Under the pieces are notes generated by a model. That model was not told the DNA's origin. It made no database searches and worked only from the letters and a program-made list of their open reading frames with translations. A stretch of DNA of 64,000 nucleotides from Anaerolineae bacterium (lineage in GTDB: Bacteria; Chloroflexota; Anaerolineae; B4-G1; SLSP01): the NCBI GenBank assembly GCA_035347995.1, contig DAOPQD010000007.1:888-64887 (forward strand), read 5' to 3'. Within the stretch, counting starts at the first letter, position 1; each line of letters starts with the position of its first letter. Positions 28,640 to 61,272 of the stretch are shown here, in pieces. The position numbers and the translations under genes were made by a program.

Positions 28640-28826
28640 CGTGACCCGCGCCTGCGTGATGGCCCTGTCGCACCGGCTGTCCCGGCTGTTGCCGGCCGGT
28701 TTTGGAGTGCGACTTTCACTTCGGGAGGGGAAAACGAGGGAAGGACCTTTCCCTGGCGGCATCCGCCGACGGCTCGATCAACCGCCACCTCGTCTTCCTG
28801 TCATCGGGTGACAGGAACTGGCGCTA
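28640..28826 (-). ncRNA. glmS ribozyme: glmS ribozyme (GlcN6P-dependent self-cleaving leader)
   Basis: The minus strand reads AGCGCCAGUUCCUGUCACCCGAUGACAGGAAGACGAGGUGGCGGUUGAUCGAGCCGUCGGCGGAUGCCGCCAGGG. This matches the conserved A/GCGCC cleavage site, GACGAGG and AUCGA..UCGGCGGAUGCC core. It lies in the glmS 5' UTR. The 3' boundary is approximate. Confidence 0.85.
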
Positions 28827-28863
28827 TTTTCCCCTGGACAAAATGGACGAGATCACCCCCCTT

Positions 28864-41242: not shown

Positions 41243-41315
41243 TGGAGATGAGGGGATTCGAACCCCTGGCCTCTACAGTGCGATTGTAGCGCTCTCCCAG
41301 CTGAGCTACATCCCC
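41243..41315 (-). tRNA. tRNA-Ala: tRNA-Ala (anticodon CGC)
   Basis: 73-nt cloverleaf. Acceptor GGGGAUG/CAUCUCC has G3:U70, the anticodon loop is AUCGCAC and the T-loop is TTCGAAT. No encoded CCA. Confidence 0.9.
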
Positions 41316-52462: not shown

Positions 52463-52771
52463 ATGGACACACACGACTCTGCCGCTCACCTGCATCATGG
52501 CGCACACCATGAGGCGGCCCTGCGTCAGCTCAAGACGACGGAGGGACACTTGCGCGGCATTCAACGGATGCTGGAAGAGGACGCCTACTGCATAGACGTT
52601 ATCCGTCAGATTCAGGCGGCACAGGCAGCGTTGAACAAGATCAGCGTGCAGATTCTTGAGGAACACCTCAACTCGTGCGTCATCACTGCCGTGCGTGGCG
52701 AGGATCCCCAAGAGCGCGAGCGTGTGCTCAAAGAAATCAGCGATGTATTTGAAGCGGCAACCAAGGTCTGA
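52463..52771 (+). CDS. csoR: CsoR/RcnR family metal-sensing transcriptional repressor (copper-type C-H-C ligands)
   Basis: 102 aa. GHLRGIQRMLEEDAYCIDVIRQI...HLNSC is present. The N-terminal tail is His-rich (HDSAAHLHHGAHHE). Confidence 0.85.
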   Translation: MDTHDSAAHLHHGAHHEAALRQLKTTEGHLRGIQRMLEEDAYCIDVIRQIQAAQAALNKISVQILEEHLNSCVITAVRGEDPQERERVLKEISDVFEAATKV

Positions 52772-52828
52772 AGTTTCTCGAAGGTCTTGAATCGGACAAT
52801 CTATCTATCGTCAATGGAGATGACAGAA

Positions 52829-53311
52829 ATGGACAAGAGAGCACGTTATCTATTAGCAGCAATCCGCATCGGCTTGGGATGGATTTTTTTCTGGGCTTTT
52901 CTCGATAAACTCTTTGGCTTGGGACGCTCCACCGCTCCAGAAGACGCCTGGTTGGCCGGCGGGTCGCCGACGGCGGGCTTTCTGGGGTTTGCGACGCAGG
53001 GGCCGTTGGCAGAGCTATACAAAAGCATCGCCGGGAGCCCCGTCGTGGATACGCTGTTCATGATAGGACTGTTGGGGCTGGGAGTGGCGCTTCTGTTGGG
53101 CATCGGCCTCAAGATCGCCGGCACCGCCGGGCCGTTCATGATGCTGTTGATGTGGGCGGCGCAATTGCCGCCCGCGACGAACCCGCTCATTGACAATCAC
53201 ATCATCTTCGCGCTGCTGCTGATGCTGTTCCCGGTGGTCAAGGCCGGACACACCCTGGGGTTGGGCGCCTGGTGGGCCGAGAAAACCCGCACCGCGCCGA
53301 TTTTGCAGTAA
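52829..53311 (+). CDS. DoxX-like membrane protein
   Basis: Start ATG 52829 follows GGAG (the track ORF begins at TTG 52787). Four TM with RIGLGWIFFWAFLDKLFG, as in the DoxX/DoxD family. Confidence 0.6.
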   Translation: MDKRARYLLAAIRIGLGWIFFWAFLDKLFGLGRSTAPEDAWLAGGSPTAGFLGFATQGPLAELYKSIAGSPVVDTLFMIGLLGLGVALLLGIGLKIAGTAGPFMMLLMWAAQLPPATNPLIDNHIIFALLLMLFPVVKAGHTLGLGAWWAEKTRTAPILQ

Positions 53312-53312
53312 G

Positions 53313-53395
53313 AGTAAGGGGTAAAGGGTAATGGATAAAGAGGTGATCCGTCATCTCAACACTCATCACCCATCACCCATCACCCATCACCCATC
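53313..53395. repeat. GGGTRAT/ATCACCC heptamer hairpin element
   Basis: GTAAGGGGTAAAGGGTAATGG...GGTGAT...CATCACCCATCACCCATCACCCATCACCCATC lies between doxX-like and copZ. Confidence 0.85.
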
Positions 53396-53614: not shown

Positions 53615-53617
53615 CAG

Positions 53618-53680
53618 AGTAATGAAAAATGGGTAATGGGTGAAATTTCCTCATCACCCATTACCCGTTACCTATCACCC
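53618..53680. repeat. GGGTRAT/ATCACCC heptamer hairpin element
   Basis: ATGGGTAATGGGTGA-N10-TCACCCATTACCCGT (14/15 complementary), between copZ and copA. Confidence 0.85.
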
Positions 53681-53695
53681 CGTTTCTGAGGTTAT

Positions 53696-56185
53696 ATGCC
53701 TGAGACCAAACACTTAACCCTTCCCGTCACCGGTATGACGTGCGCAAACTGCGTGGCGACAATCGAACGCAGCTTGAAGCGGCAGCCGGGCGTGCAGGAT
53801 GCCGTGGTGAACCTCTCGTCGGAGCGCGCGACAGTGATCTTCGACCCGACGCTGGTGGACCTCTCCACCCTCACCGCACGCATCGAGCGCGCCGGCTACG
53901 GCATCGCTACCGGTGAGGCCGAGCTCAGCATCAAGCGGCTTGCCGATGCTAACGACGCCCGGCGGCTCGAAAAAGCTCTGCTCCAGCTCGAGGGCGTGCT
54001 GGAAGCGCAGGTCTCGCTGGCGACAGAAAAGGCCCGCGTGCGCTACGTGCCCACCCTCGTCAGCCAGGCGGAGCTCCGCAAAACCGTGGCACAGGCCGGC
54101 TTCGAGGCGTTGGAACTCGGCGGCGAGGCCGAGGACGCCGAAGCCAAAGCCCGCGCTGATGAAATCGCCCGTCAAAAGCGGATGCTCATCATCGGCCTGA
54201 TCTTTACGGTGCCACTGTTCCTCTTCTCGATGGCGCGCGACCTGGGCCTGCTCGGCATGTGGGCGCACGCCGATGGGGTCCATTGGGTGATGCTGGCATT
54301 CGCGACGCCGGTGCAATTCTACGTCGGCGCGCAGTACTACGTCGGCGCGTACAAGGCACTGCGCAATCGCTCCGCCAACATGGACGTCCTCATCGCGCTC
54401 GGCACGACGGCGGCCTATCTCTATTCGTTGCCCATCGTCTTCGGCTGGCTGGAGGGACACGTCTACCTGGAAACTTCCGCCGTCATCATCACCCTGGTGC
54501 GCCTGGGCAAGCTCCTGGAGGCCCGCGCCAAAGGGGGCGCCTCCGAGGCGATCAAGAAGCTGCTGGGATTGCGGCCCAAAACGGCGCAGGTGTTGCGTGA
54601 CGGGATCGAGATGGAAGTGCCAGTAGACGACGTACGGGTGGGGGATGTGGTGCTCGTGCGCCCCGGCGAAAAAATCCCCGTGGACGGCGTCGTCATCGAG
54701 GGACGCTCAGCGGTGGATGAATCCATGCTCACCGGCGAATCGCTGCCGGTGGAGAAAGGGCCGGGCGACCCCGTTATCGGCGCCACGCTGAACAAGCTGG
54801 GCCTGCTCAAGTTCGAGGCGACGAAGGTGGGACGCGAGACGGCGCTGGCGCAGATCGTCCACCTGGTGGAAGAGGCCCAGGGCAGCAAGGCGCCCATCCA
54901 GCGGCTGGCTGACCAAATTTCAGCGGTGTTTGTGCCCCTCGTCATCGCCATCGCCGCGCTCACATTCCTGGGCTGGCTCTTCTTCGGCCCGCCGCTGCCG
55001 GCGAATGCCGACACCAACGCCTTCACCCGCGCGCTCATCAACATGGTGGCGGTGCTCGTCATCGCCTGCCCCTGCGCCATGGGCCTGGCGACGCCGACGG
55101 CAGTGATGGTGGGGACAGGCCGGGGCGCGGAATTGGGCGTCCTGCTCAAGAACGGCGAGGCCCTGGAACGCGCCGGCCACATCTCCGTGATCGTGTTGGA
55201 CAAGACCGGCACGCTCACCAAAGGCCAACCGGCAGTGACGGACGTGGTCATGAGTAACGGGTCAGAGGTGATGGGTGATATGTCCCCCCTTACCCATTAC
55301 CCATCACCCATCACCCCAGACGAACTCCTTTGCCTCGCCGCCTCCGTCGAGAAAGGCTCCGAGCATCCCCTGGGGGAGGCCATCTGGGCCGAAGCGACGA
55401 CGCGCGGGCTGACCCTGGCAGAGCCGACGGGCTTTCGGGCCGAGGCCGGGCGCGGCGTCAGCGCGGAGGTCGCAGGCCACAGCGTCGCGGTGGGCAATGT
55501 GCGCATGATGGAAGAACGCGGCTATCCGCTCAACGGGCTGCTCTCAGAGGTAGAACGCCTGCAGGCAGAGGCGAAAACTGCCATGCTGGTCGCTGTGGAT
55601 GGTGGGGTGCGCGGCGTCATTGCCGTGGCAGACACCCTGAAAGACGGCTCCGTTGAGGCCATTGCCGATCTGAAACGCCTGGGGCTGGAAGTGATCATGC
55701 TCACCGGCGACAATCGTCAGACCGCCGAAGCCATCGCCAAGCAGGCGGGCATCGAGCGGGTGCTGGCGGAGGTGCTGCCCGAAGGCAAAGCCGCTGCCAT
55801 CAAGCAGCTGCAGACGCCGACCGAAGGCGCCAAAGCCGCCCCCGTCGTGGCGATGGTAGGCGACGGCGTCAACGACGCGCCGGCGCTCGCACAAGCCGAC
55901 GTGGGCATCGCCATCGGGACGGGAACGGACGTCGCCATTGCCGCCGCGCCGATCACCCTCATGTCCGGCGATCTGCGCGGCGTGGTGCGGGCGATCGCGC
56001 TCTCGCGCAAGACCCTGCGCACCATCAAGCAGAACCTGTTCTGGGCCTTCTTCTACAACGTCATCCTGATCCCGACCGCGGCGCTGGGCCTGCTCAACCC
56101 CATGCTTGCGGCGGGGGCGATGTCGTTCAGCAGCGTGTTTGTGGTCACCAATAGCCTGCGGCTGAAAAGGGCGCCCCTCGAATAG
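53696..56185 (+). CDS. copA: copper-translocating P1B-type ATPase
   Basis: Two N-terminal HMA domains are present (the first has GMTCANC; the second has lost the Cys pair), plus CPC in TM6, [15 protein letters not shown] and SEHPLGEAI. 829 aa. Confidence 0.92.
55267..55315. repeat. GGGTGAT hairpin element located inside the copA reading frame
   Basis: GGTGATGGGTGAT (55267-55279) is perfectly complementary to ATCACCCATCACC (55303-55315). The loop contains TTACCCATTACCC. The element is translated as ...[17 protein letters not shown]... Confidence 0.9.
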
Positions 56186-56227: not shown

Positions 56228-57295
56228 GTGCGTCCGTCGGTCATTCCAGTCCTCAAAGCCTTGCTTGCCGCAGCGCTCTTCGGCATCAGTGCGCCGCTGT
56301 CCAAGACGCTGCTGGGTGAAGTCGCCCCGATCCCGCTGGCCGGTCTGCTCTACCTGGGCAGCGGGCTGACCGCTGCCGTCCTGTTGGCCTTCCAGCGCCG
56401 CACGGCGCCGGAAGGGGAGGCGCGCTTGCAGCGCAGCGATCTCCCCTGGCTGGCAGGGGCCGTGTCGGCGGGCGGGATTGCGGCGCCGATCATTTTGATG
56501 TTCAGCCTGCGCAGCACTCCCGCCACCACCGCCGCGTTGTTACTCAATTTCGAAAGCGCCGCCACCACACTCATCGCCGGGTTGATCTTCCACGAGGCCA
56601 TCGGGCGGAGGACAGGTTGGGCGGTGGGGCTGATCACGCTGGCCAGCATTCTCCTGTCCTGGGATAATAACGGGCAGTGGGGCCTGGCGCCGGGCGCGCT
56701 GGGGATTCTGGCCGCCTGCACGTTGTGGGGACTGGATAATAACTTCACGCGGAACATTTCAGCCCGCAATCCCCTGGTCATCGTGACCTGGAAAGGACTG
56801 GGCGCGGGGACGTTTTCCGTGATCCTGGCGCTGGTGACGGGACAAGCGTTTCCCGCTCCTGCGGTCATGCTGCGCGCGTTGCTGCTGGGCGGGGTCAGCT
56901 ATGGCCTGAGCATTATGCTCTTCATCCTCGCTCTCCGCGACCTGGGGGCGGCGCGCACCAGCGCGCTCTTCAGCAGCGCTCCCTTCATCGGCATGACGCT
57001 GGCCTTTGTCCTGTTTCGCGACCCTCTCGCCCCGGCTTTCCTGCTGGCCCTGCCGGTCATGCTCGGCGGCGCCCTGTTGCTCATCGGGGAGGGCCACCAG
57101 CACGAGCATTACCATCCGCGCCTGGTACACGAGCACCGCCATCGGCACGACGACGGCCATCATGCCCATGTCCATGCCGCCGGCGAAATTCCCGCGCACG
57201 GCTGGCATTCACATCCTCACATCCACGAGCCTCAGACCCACACGCATCCTCACACGCCGGATCTCCACCATCAGCACCGGCACGAGACCCCTTAG
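56228..57295 (+). CDS. EamA/DMT family permease with histidine-rich C-terminal tail
   Basis: About 10 TM with a two-EamA-domain layout. The last 69 aa contain 24 His (GEGHQHEHYHPRLVHEHRHRHDDGHHAHVH...HHQHRHETP). Confidence 0.75.
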   Translation: MRPSVIPVLKALLAAALFGISAPLSKTLLGEVAPIPLAGLLYLGSGLTAAVLLAFQRRTAPEGEARLQRSDLPWLAGAVSAGGIAAPIILMFSLRSTPATTAALLLNFESAATTLIAGLIFHEAIGRRTGWAVGLITLASILLSWDNNGQWGLAPGALGILAACTLWGLDNNFTRNISARNPLVIVTWKGLGAGTFSVILALVTGQAFPAPAVMLRALLLGGVSYGLSIMLFILALRDLGAARTSALFSSAPFIGMTLAFVLFRDPLAPAFLLALPVMLGGALLLIGEGHQHEHYHPRLVHEHRHRHDDGHHAHVHAAGEIPAHGWHSHPHIHEPQTHTHPHTPDLHHQHRHETP

Positions 57296-59004: not shown

Positions 59005-60132
59005 CTACGTCCCGCCCTCATACACCCGAGGCACGCGCGCGTTGATCTGGCACGTCACCTCGTAGGTGATTGTCCCCAGCTGCTCCGCCCACTCGTAAGC
59101 GGTGATCTCCGCGTCGCCGCTGCGCCCGATGAGCACGACCTCCTCGCCCACGCGCGCTTCCGTCTCCGGCCCCAGGTTGACCATGCTCTGATCCATGCAG
59201 ACGCGCCCGACGATAGGATAGCTGCGTCCGCCAATGAGCACGCGCCCCCGGTTGGAGAAAAGCCGATTGAAGCCGTCGGCGTAGCCCACCGGAATCGTGG
59301 CAATCCACGTGCGCTCCGGCGCGACCCACGTCCGCCCGTAGCCGATGCTTGTCCCCGCTTCCACTTGCTTGAGGAAGGAGATCCGCGTGAGGAAACTCAG
59401 CCCCGGCTTGAGCGGGATCGTGCGCGGCGTTTCCGCATCGGGATAGAAGCCGTAGATCATGATGCCGGGGCGCACCATGTCGAACCAGCCGTCGGGATGG
59501 GCCAGCACGGCGCCGGAGTTGGCGCAGTGGACAAGCGCGACCCGTCGTCCAAGCGCGGTGTGAATCGCATCCACGGTCGTGCGGAAGCGGGCGATCTGTT
59601 CGCAGGTGTAGGCCGGATCGGCGATGTCGCTCACCGGCAGGTGCGTGAAGAGGCCCTCCAGCCGCAGGTGCGGACACGCGCGCTCGAGGTGCGCCGCCAG
59701 CGCGGGGGCCTCTTCCGGTGCAACGCCAATCCGTCCCATGCCGGTATCCACCTTGAGATGCACCGTCGCCGTGCGCCGCAGCGCGCGACACACGCTTTCA
59801 AGCGCGTCGGCGTTGGCGCGGTCGCACACCGTCAGCGTGAGGTCATTTTCCACCGCCGCTGCCATCTCTTCAGGGAAAGCATGGCTCAGTTTGAGGATGG
59901 GCAGCCGGATGCCGGCAGCGCGCAGTTGCAATCCCTCCGGCACGGTAGCGACGCCCAACCACTCGACGCCACTACGCTCGGCCAGACGAGAGACTTCCAC
60001 CGCGCCGTGGCCGTAGCCGTTGGCCTTCACCGCGATAAGAATCTTCCGTTCCGGTCCCACCGCCTGGCGGATGCCTTCAAGGTTGAAGCGAATGTTCTGC
60101 AAGTGAATGCGAGCATGGGTTTGGTAGAGCAT
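59005..60132 (-). CDS. alr: alanine racemase
   Basis: 375 aa. AVKANGYGHGAVEV (PLP lysine motif) and a C-terminal beta domain ending ...VPRVY. Confidence 0.88.
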   Translation of the reverse strand: MLYQTHARIHLQNIRFNLEGIRQAVGPERKILIAVKANGYGHGAVEVSRLAERSGVEWLGVATVPEGLQLRAAGIRLPILKLSHAFPEEMAAAVENDLTLTVCDRANADALESVCRALRRTATVHLKVDTGMGRIGVAPEEAPALAAHLERACPHLRLEGLFTHLPVSDIADPAYTCEQIARFRTTVDAIHTALGRRVALVHCANSGAVLAHPDGWFDMVRPGIMIYGFYPDAETPRTIPLKPGLSFLTRISFLKQVEAGTSIGYGRTWVAPERTWIATIPVGYADGFNRLFSNRGRVLIGGRSYPIVGRVCMDQSMVNLGPETEARVGEEVVLIGRSGDAEITAYEWAEQLGTITYEVTCQINARVPRVYEGGT

Positions 60133-60157: not shown

Positions 60158-60210
60158 ATGGGTGATGGGTGATGGGCAATGAGTGCTCGTTACCCCTTAC
60201 CCATCACCAC
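60158..60210. repeat. GGGTGAT/ATCACCC heptamer hairpin element overlapping the 3' end of the next gene
   Basis: ATGGGTGATGGGTGATGGGCAATGAG...CTCGTTACCCCTTACCCATCACCAC. The right arm encodes the last residues VVMGKG and the TAA stop of ORF 60190-61272. Confidence 0.85.
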
Positions 60211-61272
60211 CTTCTGCACATACACCGAGGTGCTGGCCGCAAGGAGTGCGCCGTAGCCGGGGGTGAAGGCAATTTCCGCACCGAGGGTCACGGGGTGCTG
60301 CGCGTCTTCCACATCGAGGATGAGATGATCGCTGCTGCCCCCCAGGACGATGACGCCGGGGTCCTCCGGTTCGAGGTTATCCACGACGACGTCCTGCCGA
60401 CCCAGGTTACAGATGGCGCGCCGACGCACGCCGCGATCCACGAACTCCGGCGTCCCGCCGAAGGCGTCCTGTCCGCGCTCGCCGATGGGGACGGAGGGCT
60501 TGCGCTCCAGCTCCACCACCTCGCCCACCACACGGAAAGTGTCCTGCCGGGCGCCGGGCCAGGGCGAACGGTCAATCACGCTGCGGCCCAGCAGCATCGT
60601 CTCGCCGATGCGCAGCATGTTGATCTCCGGCGGCATTCCTCCGGCGGCGAGCAGCGGCAGATTCGCGCTGTTCCCGCCGCAGAGGACGGGCAGCTCCAGA
60701 CCGGTCGCCGCGCGACAGGTGTCACGGAGATCCCGCAACTGCTGCATCTTCTCCGTGGTGGGGATGACGCCGCCGTAGCAGGCGAGGTTGCAGCCCAGGC
60801 CGATGATCTCGAGGGCGGGCAGCGTCGCCGCCTCGCGGAGCGCGTCCACGGCGCGATCGGGCCAGATGCCCTCGCGCAGATCGCCGAGATCCACCATGAA
60901 GATGACCTGATGCCGGACGCCGTAGAAGGCCGCGGCCTGCGAGAGCAAGCGCAGCGTGGCGACGGACGAGTTGAGGGAGACATCGCTCCAGCGCACCACA
61001 TCGGCGGCCTGGCCCGGCGCGGGGATGCGGAGCAGCATCAGCGGCAGCGTCGCGCCCATGCGCCGCAGCGCCTGCAGGTTCTCGAGGCGCGAGTCGGCGA
61101 GTAAATCCGCGCCCGCCTCCACGAGCGCCCGCGCCACCGCCGGGTGCGCGCAGGTCACCTTGGTCACGGCCGCCACGCGGATGCCGTGGCGATGACACAG
61201 GCCCAGAATCGCGCGCGCGTTCTCCGCGATGCGCTGCGGGTAGATTTCCAGTCGGGGAGTGAAATTGGGCAT
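60190..61272 (-). CDS. alanine/ornithine racemase family PLP enzyme (Orr-like)
   Basis: 360 aa. N-terminal TIM-barrel with AAVTKV (PLP Lys). The overall pattern matches the short racemase family that includes clostridial ornithine racemase. Confidence 0.65.
   Translation of the reverse strand: MPNFTPRLEIYPQRIAENARAILGLCHRHGIRVAAVTKVTCAHPAVARALVEAGADLLADSRLENLQALRRMGATLPLMLLRIPAPGQAADVVRWSDVSLNSSVATLRLLSQAAAFYGVRHQVIFMVDLGDLREGIWPDRAVDALREAATLPALEIIGLGCNLACYGGVIPTTEKMQQLRDLRDTCRAATGLELPVLCGGNSANLPLLAAGGMPPEINMLRIGETMLLGRSVIDRSPWPGARQDTFRVVGEVVELERKPSVPIGERGQDAFGGTPEFVDRGVRRRAICNLGRQDVVVDNLEPEDPGVIVLGGSSDHLILDVEDAQHPVTLGAEIAFTPGYGALLAASTSVYVQKVVMGKG

Follow-up and report, generated by a model that had tools for sequence, protein, structure and literature searches.

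How does a hairpin repeat of the kind seen between genes come to be translated inside a copper-transporting ATPase? The question is raised by the copA gene of an Anaerolineae bacterium, within a stretch of 64,000 nucleotides (nt) of contig DAOPQD010000007.1 (assembly GCA_035347995.1, positions 888 to 64,887 of the forward strand), called the window in what follows. An earlier reading of the letters alone (the sequence-only reading) had noticed the hairpin and proposed a rare exaptation of an intergenic repeat into a protein that probably still works. The analysis presented here points, with a probability of roughly three in four, to a lineage-specific heptamer-armed hairpin repeat that is tolerated in a permissive interdomain loop of CopA and drifts fast there, in an ATPase that remains functional. 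The window lies within contig C7 of a metagenome bin of 3.46 Mb and 62% G+C (G000, the window's own genome), whose closest named relatives are metagenome-assembled genomes of the Anaerolineae/Anaerolineales. Related genomes carry G labels, copA loci L labels, and CopA sequences P labels; L101 and P0003 are treated together.

The hairpin in copA and its place in the protein

The copA product matches the Pfam families E1-E2_ATPase and Hydrolase and, twice, HMA. It aligns with Archaeoglobus fulgidus CopA (3J09) at an E value of 9e-184, with the TGES, CPC, DKTGT, SEHP, and GDGxND motifs all present. Together with alignments to 3J09, 7R0G, and 3RFU, the Pfam matches place it in the CopA class, which combines the ATPase core motifs with an N-terminal HMA domain. 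The gene, the hairpin element within it, and the related hairpins of the window are as follows.

53696-56185, plus strand: copA, intact gene for a P1B-type Cu(I)-exporting ATPase of 829 amino acids (aa), from its open reading frame (ORF), Pfam, and the 3J09 match
55252-55316, plus strand: heptamer-armed hairpin element, in frame in copA, residues ~520-541
55252-55279, plus strand: G-rich left arm, GAGTAAC GGGTCAG AGGTGAT GGGTGAT, with unit 2 degenerate
55280-55288, plus strand: spacer (loop) ATGTCCCCC, with a homologous TCCCCC spacer in G001, L104, and L101
55289-55316, plus strand: C-rich right arm, CTTACCC ATTACCC ATCACCC ATCACCC, open in three frames
53312-53395, strand not applicable: GGGTRAT-family hairpin in the copZ leader, ending just 5' of the GGAG ribosome-binding site of copZ
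53617-53683, strand not applicable: GGGTRAT-family hairpin between the copZ stop codon and the copA ribosome-binding site
60160-60210, strand not applicable: GGGTRAT-family hairpin between the minus-strand ORFs 60190-61272 and 59005-60132

The sequence-only reading had described two perfectly complementary 13-nt arms with 23 nt between them. These arms, GGTGATGGGTGAT (55267-55279) and ATCACCCATCACC (55303-55315), are present as described, and its translation of the insert peptide was correct; the full element is longer, at 65 nt. Read in a 7-nt register, the element consists of four GGGTRAT-type heptamers, a 9-nt spacer, and four ATYACCC-type heptamers. The 13-mer with up to two mismatches occurs 17 times in the window, where 1.44 matches are expected and none of 100 shuffles reaches 17, and GGGTRATGGGTRAT with up to one mismatch occurs 12 times against 0.04 expected. 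The matches fall into the four hairpins listed above, three of which start with GAGTAA. The two copies beside copZ share the GGGTRAT/ATYACCC arms of the copA copy, which agrees with the earlier assignment of all of them to one repeat family. An Rfam scan of the whole window placed no family on any of the hairpins, with a glmS ribozyme and two tRNAs being the only features that reach the gathering score.

The distance from DKTGT to SEHP is 53 residues in the window, 36 in the nearest insert-free congeners, and 36 to 39 in other phyla, so that 51 nt or 17 residues have been gained over insert-free orthologues. In an alignment of 20 orthologues from related genomes, the hinge measured from DKTGT to GSEHP has 52 residues in the window and in G001, whose protein is 98% identical, and 35 in G003, G004, and G005, which belong to the same genus as the window's genome, share 87 to 88% CopA identity with it, and have no hinge insert. 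The linker is thus longer than in orthologues, as had been proposed, and nothing equivalent is seen in relatives that lack the repeat family. At the empty site of L005, 21 nt (TDQLPED) stand in place of the 72 nt (MSN...TPD) of the window, and neither in this comparison nor against the empty site of L006 is a flank doubled as a target-site duplication.

The position of the insert in the fold is the expected one, a hinge loop between the phosphorylation (P) and nucleotide-binding (N) domains. The HMMER alignment to 3J09 has a 17-residue gap between the P-domain strand ending in VTDLV and the N-domain helix ELLRLAA, and in the window's CopA the last P-domain strand (VTDVV) directly precedes the insert and the first N-domain helix (ELLCLAAS) directly follows it. 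In an AlphaFold2 model based on 38 orthologues, the mean predicted local distance difference test score (pLDDT) is 81.3 and the predicted template modelling score is 0.72. The pLDDT falls below 50 solely at residues 141-146, the linker after the metal-binding domains, and at residues 524-536, the insert, which has the lowest confidence in the ATPase core; the flanking strand (513-519) and helix (541-552) are both modelled at a pLDDT of about 90. The insert is therefore predicted to be a disordered loop of 17 residues.

Several public sources together record the exact CopA of the window on 20 contigs, and the two 90%-identity clusters have 17 full-length members, each with 829 aa and the insert. 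G001, L104, and L101 carry it with lineage-specific substitutions, and L101/P0003, with a CopA identity of 88.7% outside the hinge, has an insert of equal length with the TCCCCC spacer. Because it is found at equal length in many independent assemblies, the insert is not an assembly artefact. A chimera or mis-join within copA, which might be imagined in a metagenome bin given that repeats are error-prone in assembly, has a practically negligible probability. The insert is also fairly old, since it predates the split of lineages about 11% apart in CopA protein.

Within this constant length, the insert changes quickly. Between G000 and G001, copA differs at 89 of 2487 nt and at 17 of 829 residues, and four of the 17 residue changes lie within the 23 insert residues (Fisher p = 8e-4). 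Nucleotide divergence for this pair is weakly higher in the insert than in the rest of the gene (7.7% versus 3.5%, p = 0.08); the clear rate signal comes from the amino acid changes and from the closer pair G001 and L104. The CopA proteins of this second pair are 99.6% identical outside the hinge, and the 78 nt of the hinge segment hold 16 of their 41 nucleotide differences (odds ratio 24.6, p = 1e-14). Overall the insert changes at about 20 times the rate of the rest of the gene, and whole units are swapped between G001 and L104, for example ATCACCC for CTTACCC. Among the substitutions of G000, G001, and L104 none is a compensatory stem change, and pairs are broken (GGTGAT to GGCCAT), so a conserved stem was rejected. 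A copper-binding methionine motif (MxxM) was rejected as well, as it is not kept in G001 (M529R), L104/P0002, or P0003. Because stem pairs break uncompensated and MxxM is destroyed, the insert has neither a conserved peptide nor conserved pairing.

What is kept is the open frame. A canonical (GGGTRAT)n array has a stop codon at every third unit in every frame, and (ATYACCC)n is open in all frames. Unit 2 of the left arm starts at 55259 in codon position 1, so that its canonical form would be read as GGG TGA or GGG TAA. In every lineage with this insert codon 523 is instead TCA or TTA (reading GGG TCA or GGG TTA), and it is polymorphic (S/L) even between near-identical sequences. The length is constant within copA, whereas G000 and G001 differ by about seven units in the intergenic copy located 1.6 kb upstream. 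This is consistent with a loop in which the open frame is selected for and the encoded peptide does not matter. The catalytic motifs are invariant across the orthologue alignment and copA outside the insert is under purifying selection, which with the intact frame upholds the earlier view that the ATPase is probably functional.

Heptamer repeats in the genome and in the hinges of relatives

The copA copy belongs to a large population of repeats. Tandem Repeats Finder detects in G000 367 period-7 arrays at scores of 30 or more and 79 at 50 or more, where period 7 is the commonest period, and the arrays represent several unit families (AATGGGT, ACGACTC, AGCATCC, AACTCAC, and others). There are 75 GGGTRAT clusters genome-wide. 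At 21 sites a G-rich GGGTRAT array is followed within 45 nt by a complementary C-rich array, and at none is the order reversed; examples of such sites are C7:54206-54279, C8:8970-9041, and C47:6622-6768. Since the layout of G-arm and C-arm reads alike on both strands, the polarity belongs to the element itself. Among the paired matches listed, this order recurs in the TACGCAG (G002, G023) and TACTCCT (G019, G020) families, with ...GTA units on the left and TAC... units on the right. At least eight GGGTRAT hairpins, including both intergenic copies of the cop locus, end a few bases 5' of a Shine-Dalgarno sequence and start codon. The arrays are tandem, over-represented, dispersed, and mostly non-coding, as in the heptanucleotide simple-sequence-repeat class (STRR / LSSR).

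After merging, G000 has 238 period-7 arrays, just a handful of which lie within verified genes. In addition to copA, in-frame arrays are present in at least six genes, encoding a UDP-GlcNAc 2-epimerase (WecB), a DAO-family oxidoreductase, an HdrA-like protein, and three GT-C-type membrane proteins. These arrays are located at C2:34275-34295, C12:22805-22833, C51:10843-10865, C6:29710-29740, C13:31553-31605, and C22:3634-3729, and Pfam matches span or flank them. The array at C22:3634-3729 is a GGGTRAT/ATYACCC hairpin with a peptide like that of the copA insert (EVMSNEG...PITHHPSP). Most other ORFs that seemed to span arrays (TrpRS, PheS, LexA, and others) were rejected as stop-to-stop read-through of 5' leaders. 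Two very long arrays, C50:6515-6721 (207 nt) and C109:7061-7373 (313 nt), with units CCAGCAC and GCTGGAT, sit in the leaders of a LexA-like gene and of a gene for a large multi-pass membrane protein; their frame is open with the downstream gene, yet they lie upstream of its likely start.

The same hinge is a recurrent repeat site in relatives. When the variable hinge segment was tested for period 7 against a codon-shuffle null (p <= 0.01), 28 of 79 Chloroflexota copA loci gave a significant signal and none of 15 from other phyla did; in L022, L027, and L051 the signal is significant without a net gain in length. Together with the at least six other genes of G000 that contain in-frame arrays, this contradicts the earlier view of copA as a rare case. 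The units differ from lineage to lineage.

L003 and L004 hinges: AATCAGC, GAATGGC, and TACGCAG units
L009 hinge: ACGAAT, GGATCGGC, and TACTCCT units
L010 hinge: ATCACGA, three times
L016 and L017 hinges: GTTTCAC/GAAAC hairpins
L050 hinge: GATTGGG/CCAATCC hairpin
L032 and L061 hinges: CAGTNNN/NNNACTG hairpins
L023 hinge: 19 CAGTNAT-type units

For the three families tested (GGGTRAT, TACGCAG, and TACTCCT), the hinge unit of a copA is always abundant in its own genome. GGGTRAT dimers number 47 in G000, 86 in G001, and 40 in G002, and 0 to 1 in 22 other relatives, including the insert-free G003 to G005. TACGCAG is found 78 times in G002 and 160 times in G023, and TACTCCT 92 times in G019 and 44 times in G020, with at most 9 occurrences of either elsewhere. 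G002 has GGGTRAT arrays, but its copA hinge uses other units. The gap between copZ and copA likewise always contains a heptamer hairpin in relatives, with units that vary by lineage. In the hinge, the arrays begin and end at the residues that open and close the variable part of the loop in the protein alignment.

Closely related genes can carry unrelated hinge modules. On a hinge-masked tree P0003 and P0028 are about 1% apart and have unrelated modules, and L101 and L103, with 95% identical CopA genes, have wholly different modules, each of exactly ten heptamer registers. The gene thus diverges more slowly than its modules are exchanged or replaced. In P0003 the flanking VTDVV is that of the window's lineage, a match that suggests homologous recombination of the hinge allele.

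A preferred hinge length was considered and rejected: the many 53-residue hinges came from a search biased by its 53-residue-hinge query, and the unbiased locus sample shows no such preference. A second CopA loop, after residue ~710 between the KxLQ helix and GDGxND, contains period-7 arrays in the Anaerolineales relatives L022, L023, L025, L027, and L028, with lag-7 identities of 0.5 to 0.9. The corresponding loop of the window's CopA (residues 705-716, a 7-residue extension) was rejected as heptamer derived, having a lag-7 identity of 0.25 and no period-7 signal.

The cop locus lies on the plus strand, in the order csoR-type gene, membrane protein gene, copZ-like gene, copA, and EamA transporter gene. 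Its remaining genes and other features of the window are as follows.

52463-52771, plus strand: csoR-type metal-sensing repressor (ORF, Pfam)
52787-53311: predicted membrane protein of 174 aa between csoR and copZ, with no Pfam match; a similar-sized gene occupies the same place in L104
53411-53614, plus strand: copZ-like HMA copper chaperone, 67 aa (ORF, Pfam)
56228-57295: EamA-family transporter beside copA, with a long histidine-rich tail (HQHEHYHPRLVHEHRHRHDDGHHAHVH...HSHPHIHEPQTHTHPHTPDLHHQHRH); an EamA gene likewise follows copA in L104
57376-57515 and 57590-57729: a pair of direct repeats of 140 nt (93% identity, 214 nt apart), with no Rfam match, filling the gap between the EamA gene and a pyridoxal-phosphate-dependent Cys/Met-metabolism-like ORF (start 57735)
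28657-28836, minus strand: glmS ribozyme, 78 bits
41133-41205 and 41243-41315, minus strand: two tRNA genes

The composition of the histidine-rich tail suggests that the EamA-family transporter may bind metal.

Explanations of the insert

In the favoured reading, the insert would be one copy of a dispersed, lineage-specific hairpin repeat with a GGGTRAT left arm and an ATYACCC right arm, a family whose usual home in G000 is mRNA leaders directly 5' of ribosome-binding sites. One copy would have arisen or landed in the DNA for the loop joining the P and N domains, and would have survived there on three counts, namely that the loop tolerates disordered residues, that the length is a multiple of three, and that the stop-giving unit of the G-arm is mutated. 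It would be translated as a 17-residue surface loop without a function of its own, leaving the ATPase functional, and the arrays would go on changing by slippage, unit replacement, and recombination. We infer a neutral effect on the protein and, for the copy itself, an origin by copying or template switching from other arrays, or else growth in situ. The simplest account of the recurrence of arrays in this hinge across the Anaerolineae is that arrays form at a high rate in this class and pass through a selection filter.

Several points weigh against this reading. Both arms co-vary between lineages, with GGGTRAT/ATYACCC in the window's lineage and GAGTRAW/WTYACTC in L105, and this, together with the 21:0 polarity, speaks for a specific generating mechanism beyond simple slippage. 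To give P0003 and P0028 their unrelated modules, recombination or a cassette-like replacement is required, and a target at the DNA level, as well as a selection filter, could lie behind the repeated use of exactly this loop. Through hinge motion the insert may also be mildly adaptive or mildly deleterious, and all genomes compared are metagenome bins. Fixed polarity, arm co-variation, and the genome-wide choice of unit also leave room for an unlikely but live alternative, in which the Anaerolineae would possess a dedicated process that builds fixed-polarity heptamer hairpins and installs or overwrites them at preferred slots. Such slots would be found in mRNA leaders by ribosome-binding sites and in a small number of protein hinges, with the P/N hinge of CopA among them. 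Purine-rich NNNNGTA-type units would be placed 5' and complementary TAC-type units 3', with the unit sequence set genome-wide, and modules would be swapped faster than host genes diverge. If this is true, a new repeat-writing system would have a mutational hot spot in the copA hinge, which would be more than a tolerant loop. An active non-autonomous mobile element, similar to MITEs (miniature transposable elements with inverted repeats) or REPINs, would also make the hot spot mutational, through a trans-acting enzyme with a target preference at the hinge and at ribosome-binding sites. The dispersed and lineage-specific family, its 21:0 arm polarity, the filling of both the copZ-copA gap and the copA hinge by different units in many lineages, and the GAGTAA start of three window copies all speak for such an element. 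However, the copA copy has no target-site duplication relative to the L005 empty site, arm lengths and loops vary between copies so that there is no master sequence, and array boundaries match the variable residues, as a selection filter predicts. A RAYT/Y1 transposase (PF01797) is an improbable driver, as its matches do not track the GGGTRAT arrays: G001, which has the most arrays, has none, and the GGGTRAT-free G003 and G005 have strong ones, in a weak test made with PF01797 on incomplete bins. A mobile element of this kind is thus rated as quite improbable.

The remaining explanations assign a function to the insert. As an adaptive exaptation it would alter CopA, for example as a Met/His copper-handling loop (VMGDM...THY) or as a hinge that tunes N-domain movement. 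Its constant length over ~11% protein divergence, the absence of insert-less alleles among 17 close full-length sequences, and the MxxM motif of the window peptide would be expected from such a role. However, MxxM is gone in G001 and L104/P0002, the peptide, predicted to be disordered, is the fastest-evolving part of CopA, a hinge of 36 residues suffices in congeners, and unrelated hinge peptides are found in other lineages. In addition, Met-rich Cu(I) sites are typically periplasmic, and the P and N domains of CopA are cytoplasmic. The exaptation put forward by the sequence-only reading is therefore very unlikely, as neither the peptide nor the hairpin pairing is conserved in close relatives. 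A role at the nucleic acid level is more doubtful still. It would involve an mRNA hairpin or a template-strand G-quadruplex (G4) that pauses translation or transcription at the passage from the P to the N domain, or else a protein-binding site. The RNA fold of the copA copy is stable (-28.4 kcal/mol, z = -2.8), and the complement of the right arm forms a G3N4 motif, four times over, on the template strand. The complement of 55284-55316, GGGTGATGGGTGATGGGTAATGGGTAAGGGGGG, has five tracts of three or more G with loops of 3 to 4 nt, which exceeds the at least four G3 tracts of a G4 motif, and the C-arm complement resembles GGGNATC repeats that form G4 in vitro (PMC4692102). Such a role is opposed by the uncompensated loss of stem pairs in G001 and L104, by the non-palindromic arrays of L023, L010, and L103 at the same hinge, and by the lack of an Rfam family match. 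Given that 7 is not a multiple of 3 and that copy number in the intergenic members of the family changes quickly (G000 versus G001), a contingency locus was also considered, in which heptamer copy number would shift the frame and switch copA on or off. Perfect tandem units never exceed two per run, the 17 full-length close relatives are all equally long and open in frame, and no frameshifted allele was seen among hinge-containing loci, which makes a switch of this type exceedingly improbable.

Known repeats and significance

The favoured reading, a tolerated copy of a heptamer-armed hairpin, has its closest functional analogue in the Rickettsia palindromic elements (RPE), dispersed palindromic repeats that lie in frame in housekeeping genes (PMC10969869). 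Both are palindromic repeat families with in-frame copies in unrelated genes, translated at positions compatible with the fold. The two differ in that RPE are ~100-150 bp long with a consensus that encodes a conserved peptide, whereas the copA element has 65 nt, variable arms, and an unconserved peptide; the GGGTRAT element is moreover built of tandem heptamers, has its usual home in mRNA leaders, and belongs to the phylum Chloroflexota.

By sequence type, the copA element belongs to the class of heptanucleotide simple sequence repeats, members of which are known from cyanobacteria, Beggiatoaceae, Xanthomonas, and Nostoc; slippage of the polymerase on a 7-nt footprint has been proposed as their source (PMC4679880, PMC4692102). 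Like the cyanobacterial STRR and the TAACTGA repeats of Beggiatoaceae (PMC4679880), the G000 repeats consist of 7-base tandem units in many dispersed, lineage-specific arrays, mostly intergenic and often near start codons, with fast copy-number change. The heptamers of the Beggiatoa genome are mainly direct (169 direct sets and one indirect; PMC4679880), whereas in G000 two complementary arrays face each other with fixed polarity. The GGGNATC repeats of Xanthomonas and Nostoc (PMC4692102) share the plan of GGG plus four bases, the preference for about four units, the location within 50 bp of ORF ends, and the under-representation inside ORFs. They differ in that the unit here is GGGTRAT, with the G-array paired with its complement as a hairpin; PMC4692102 reports no recurrent in-frame protein insertions for GGGNATC repeats. 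Intragenic MITEs, ERIC, and BOX are likewise small structured repeats that occasionally fuse in frame with host ORFs, but the copA element has no terminal inverted repeats distinct from its body, no target-site duplication, and no transposase of the PF01797 type that tracks its family. Full-text searches of the literature library retrieved nothing on such heptamer repeats in Anaerolineae or Chloroflexi. In the cited accounts of heptamer repeats, neither the fixed-polarity hairpin architecture nor the recurrent in-frame use of one ATPase hinge is described.

For copper biology itself, the insert is probably of little consequence. For annotation it serves as a warning, in that such in-frame segments are repeat derived and not domain features. 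Translated small structured repeats in essential proteins are known mainly from Rickettsia, and the copA case involves a different type of repeat, with the same P-type ATPase hinge filled repeatedly across a bacterial class and, in the genomes tested, by a unit that is common in the genome concerned. The P/N hinge and the loop before GDGxND together provide a natural map of the tolerance of CopA for 10 to 50 extra residues. With filled and empty sites, lineage-specific units, and strict arm polarity, these loci form a comparative system for the origin and spread of heptamer repeats.

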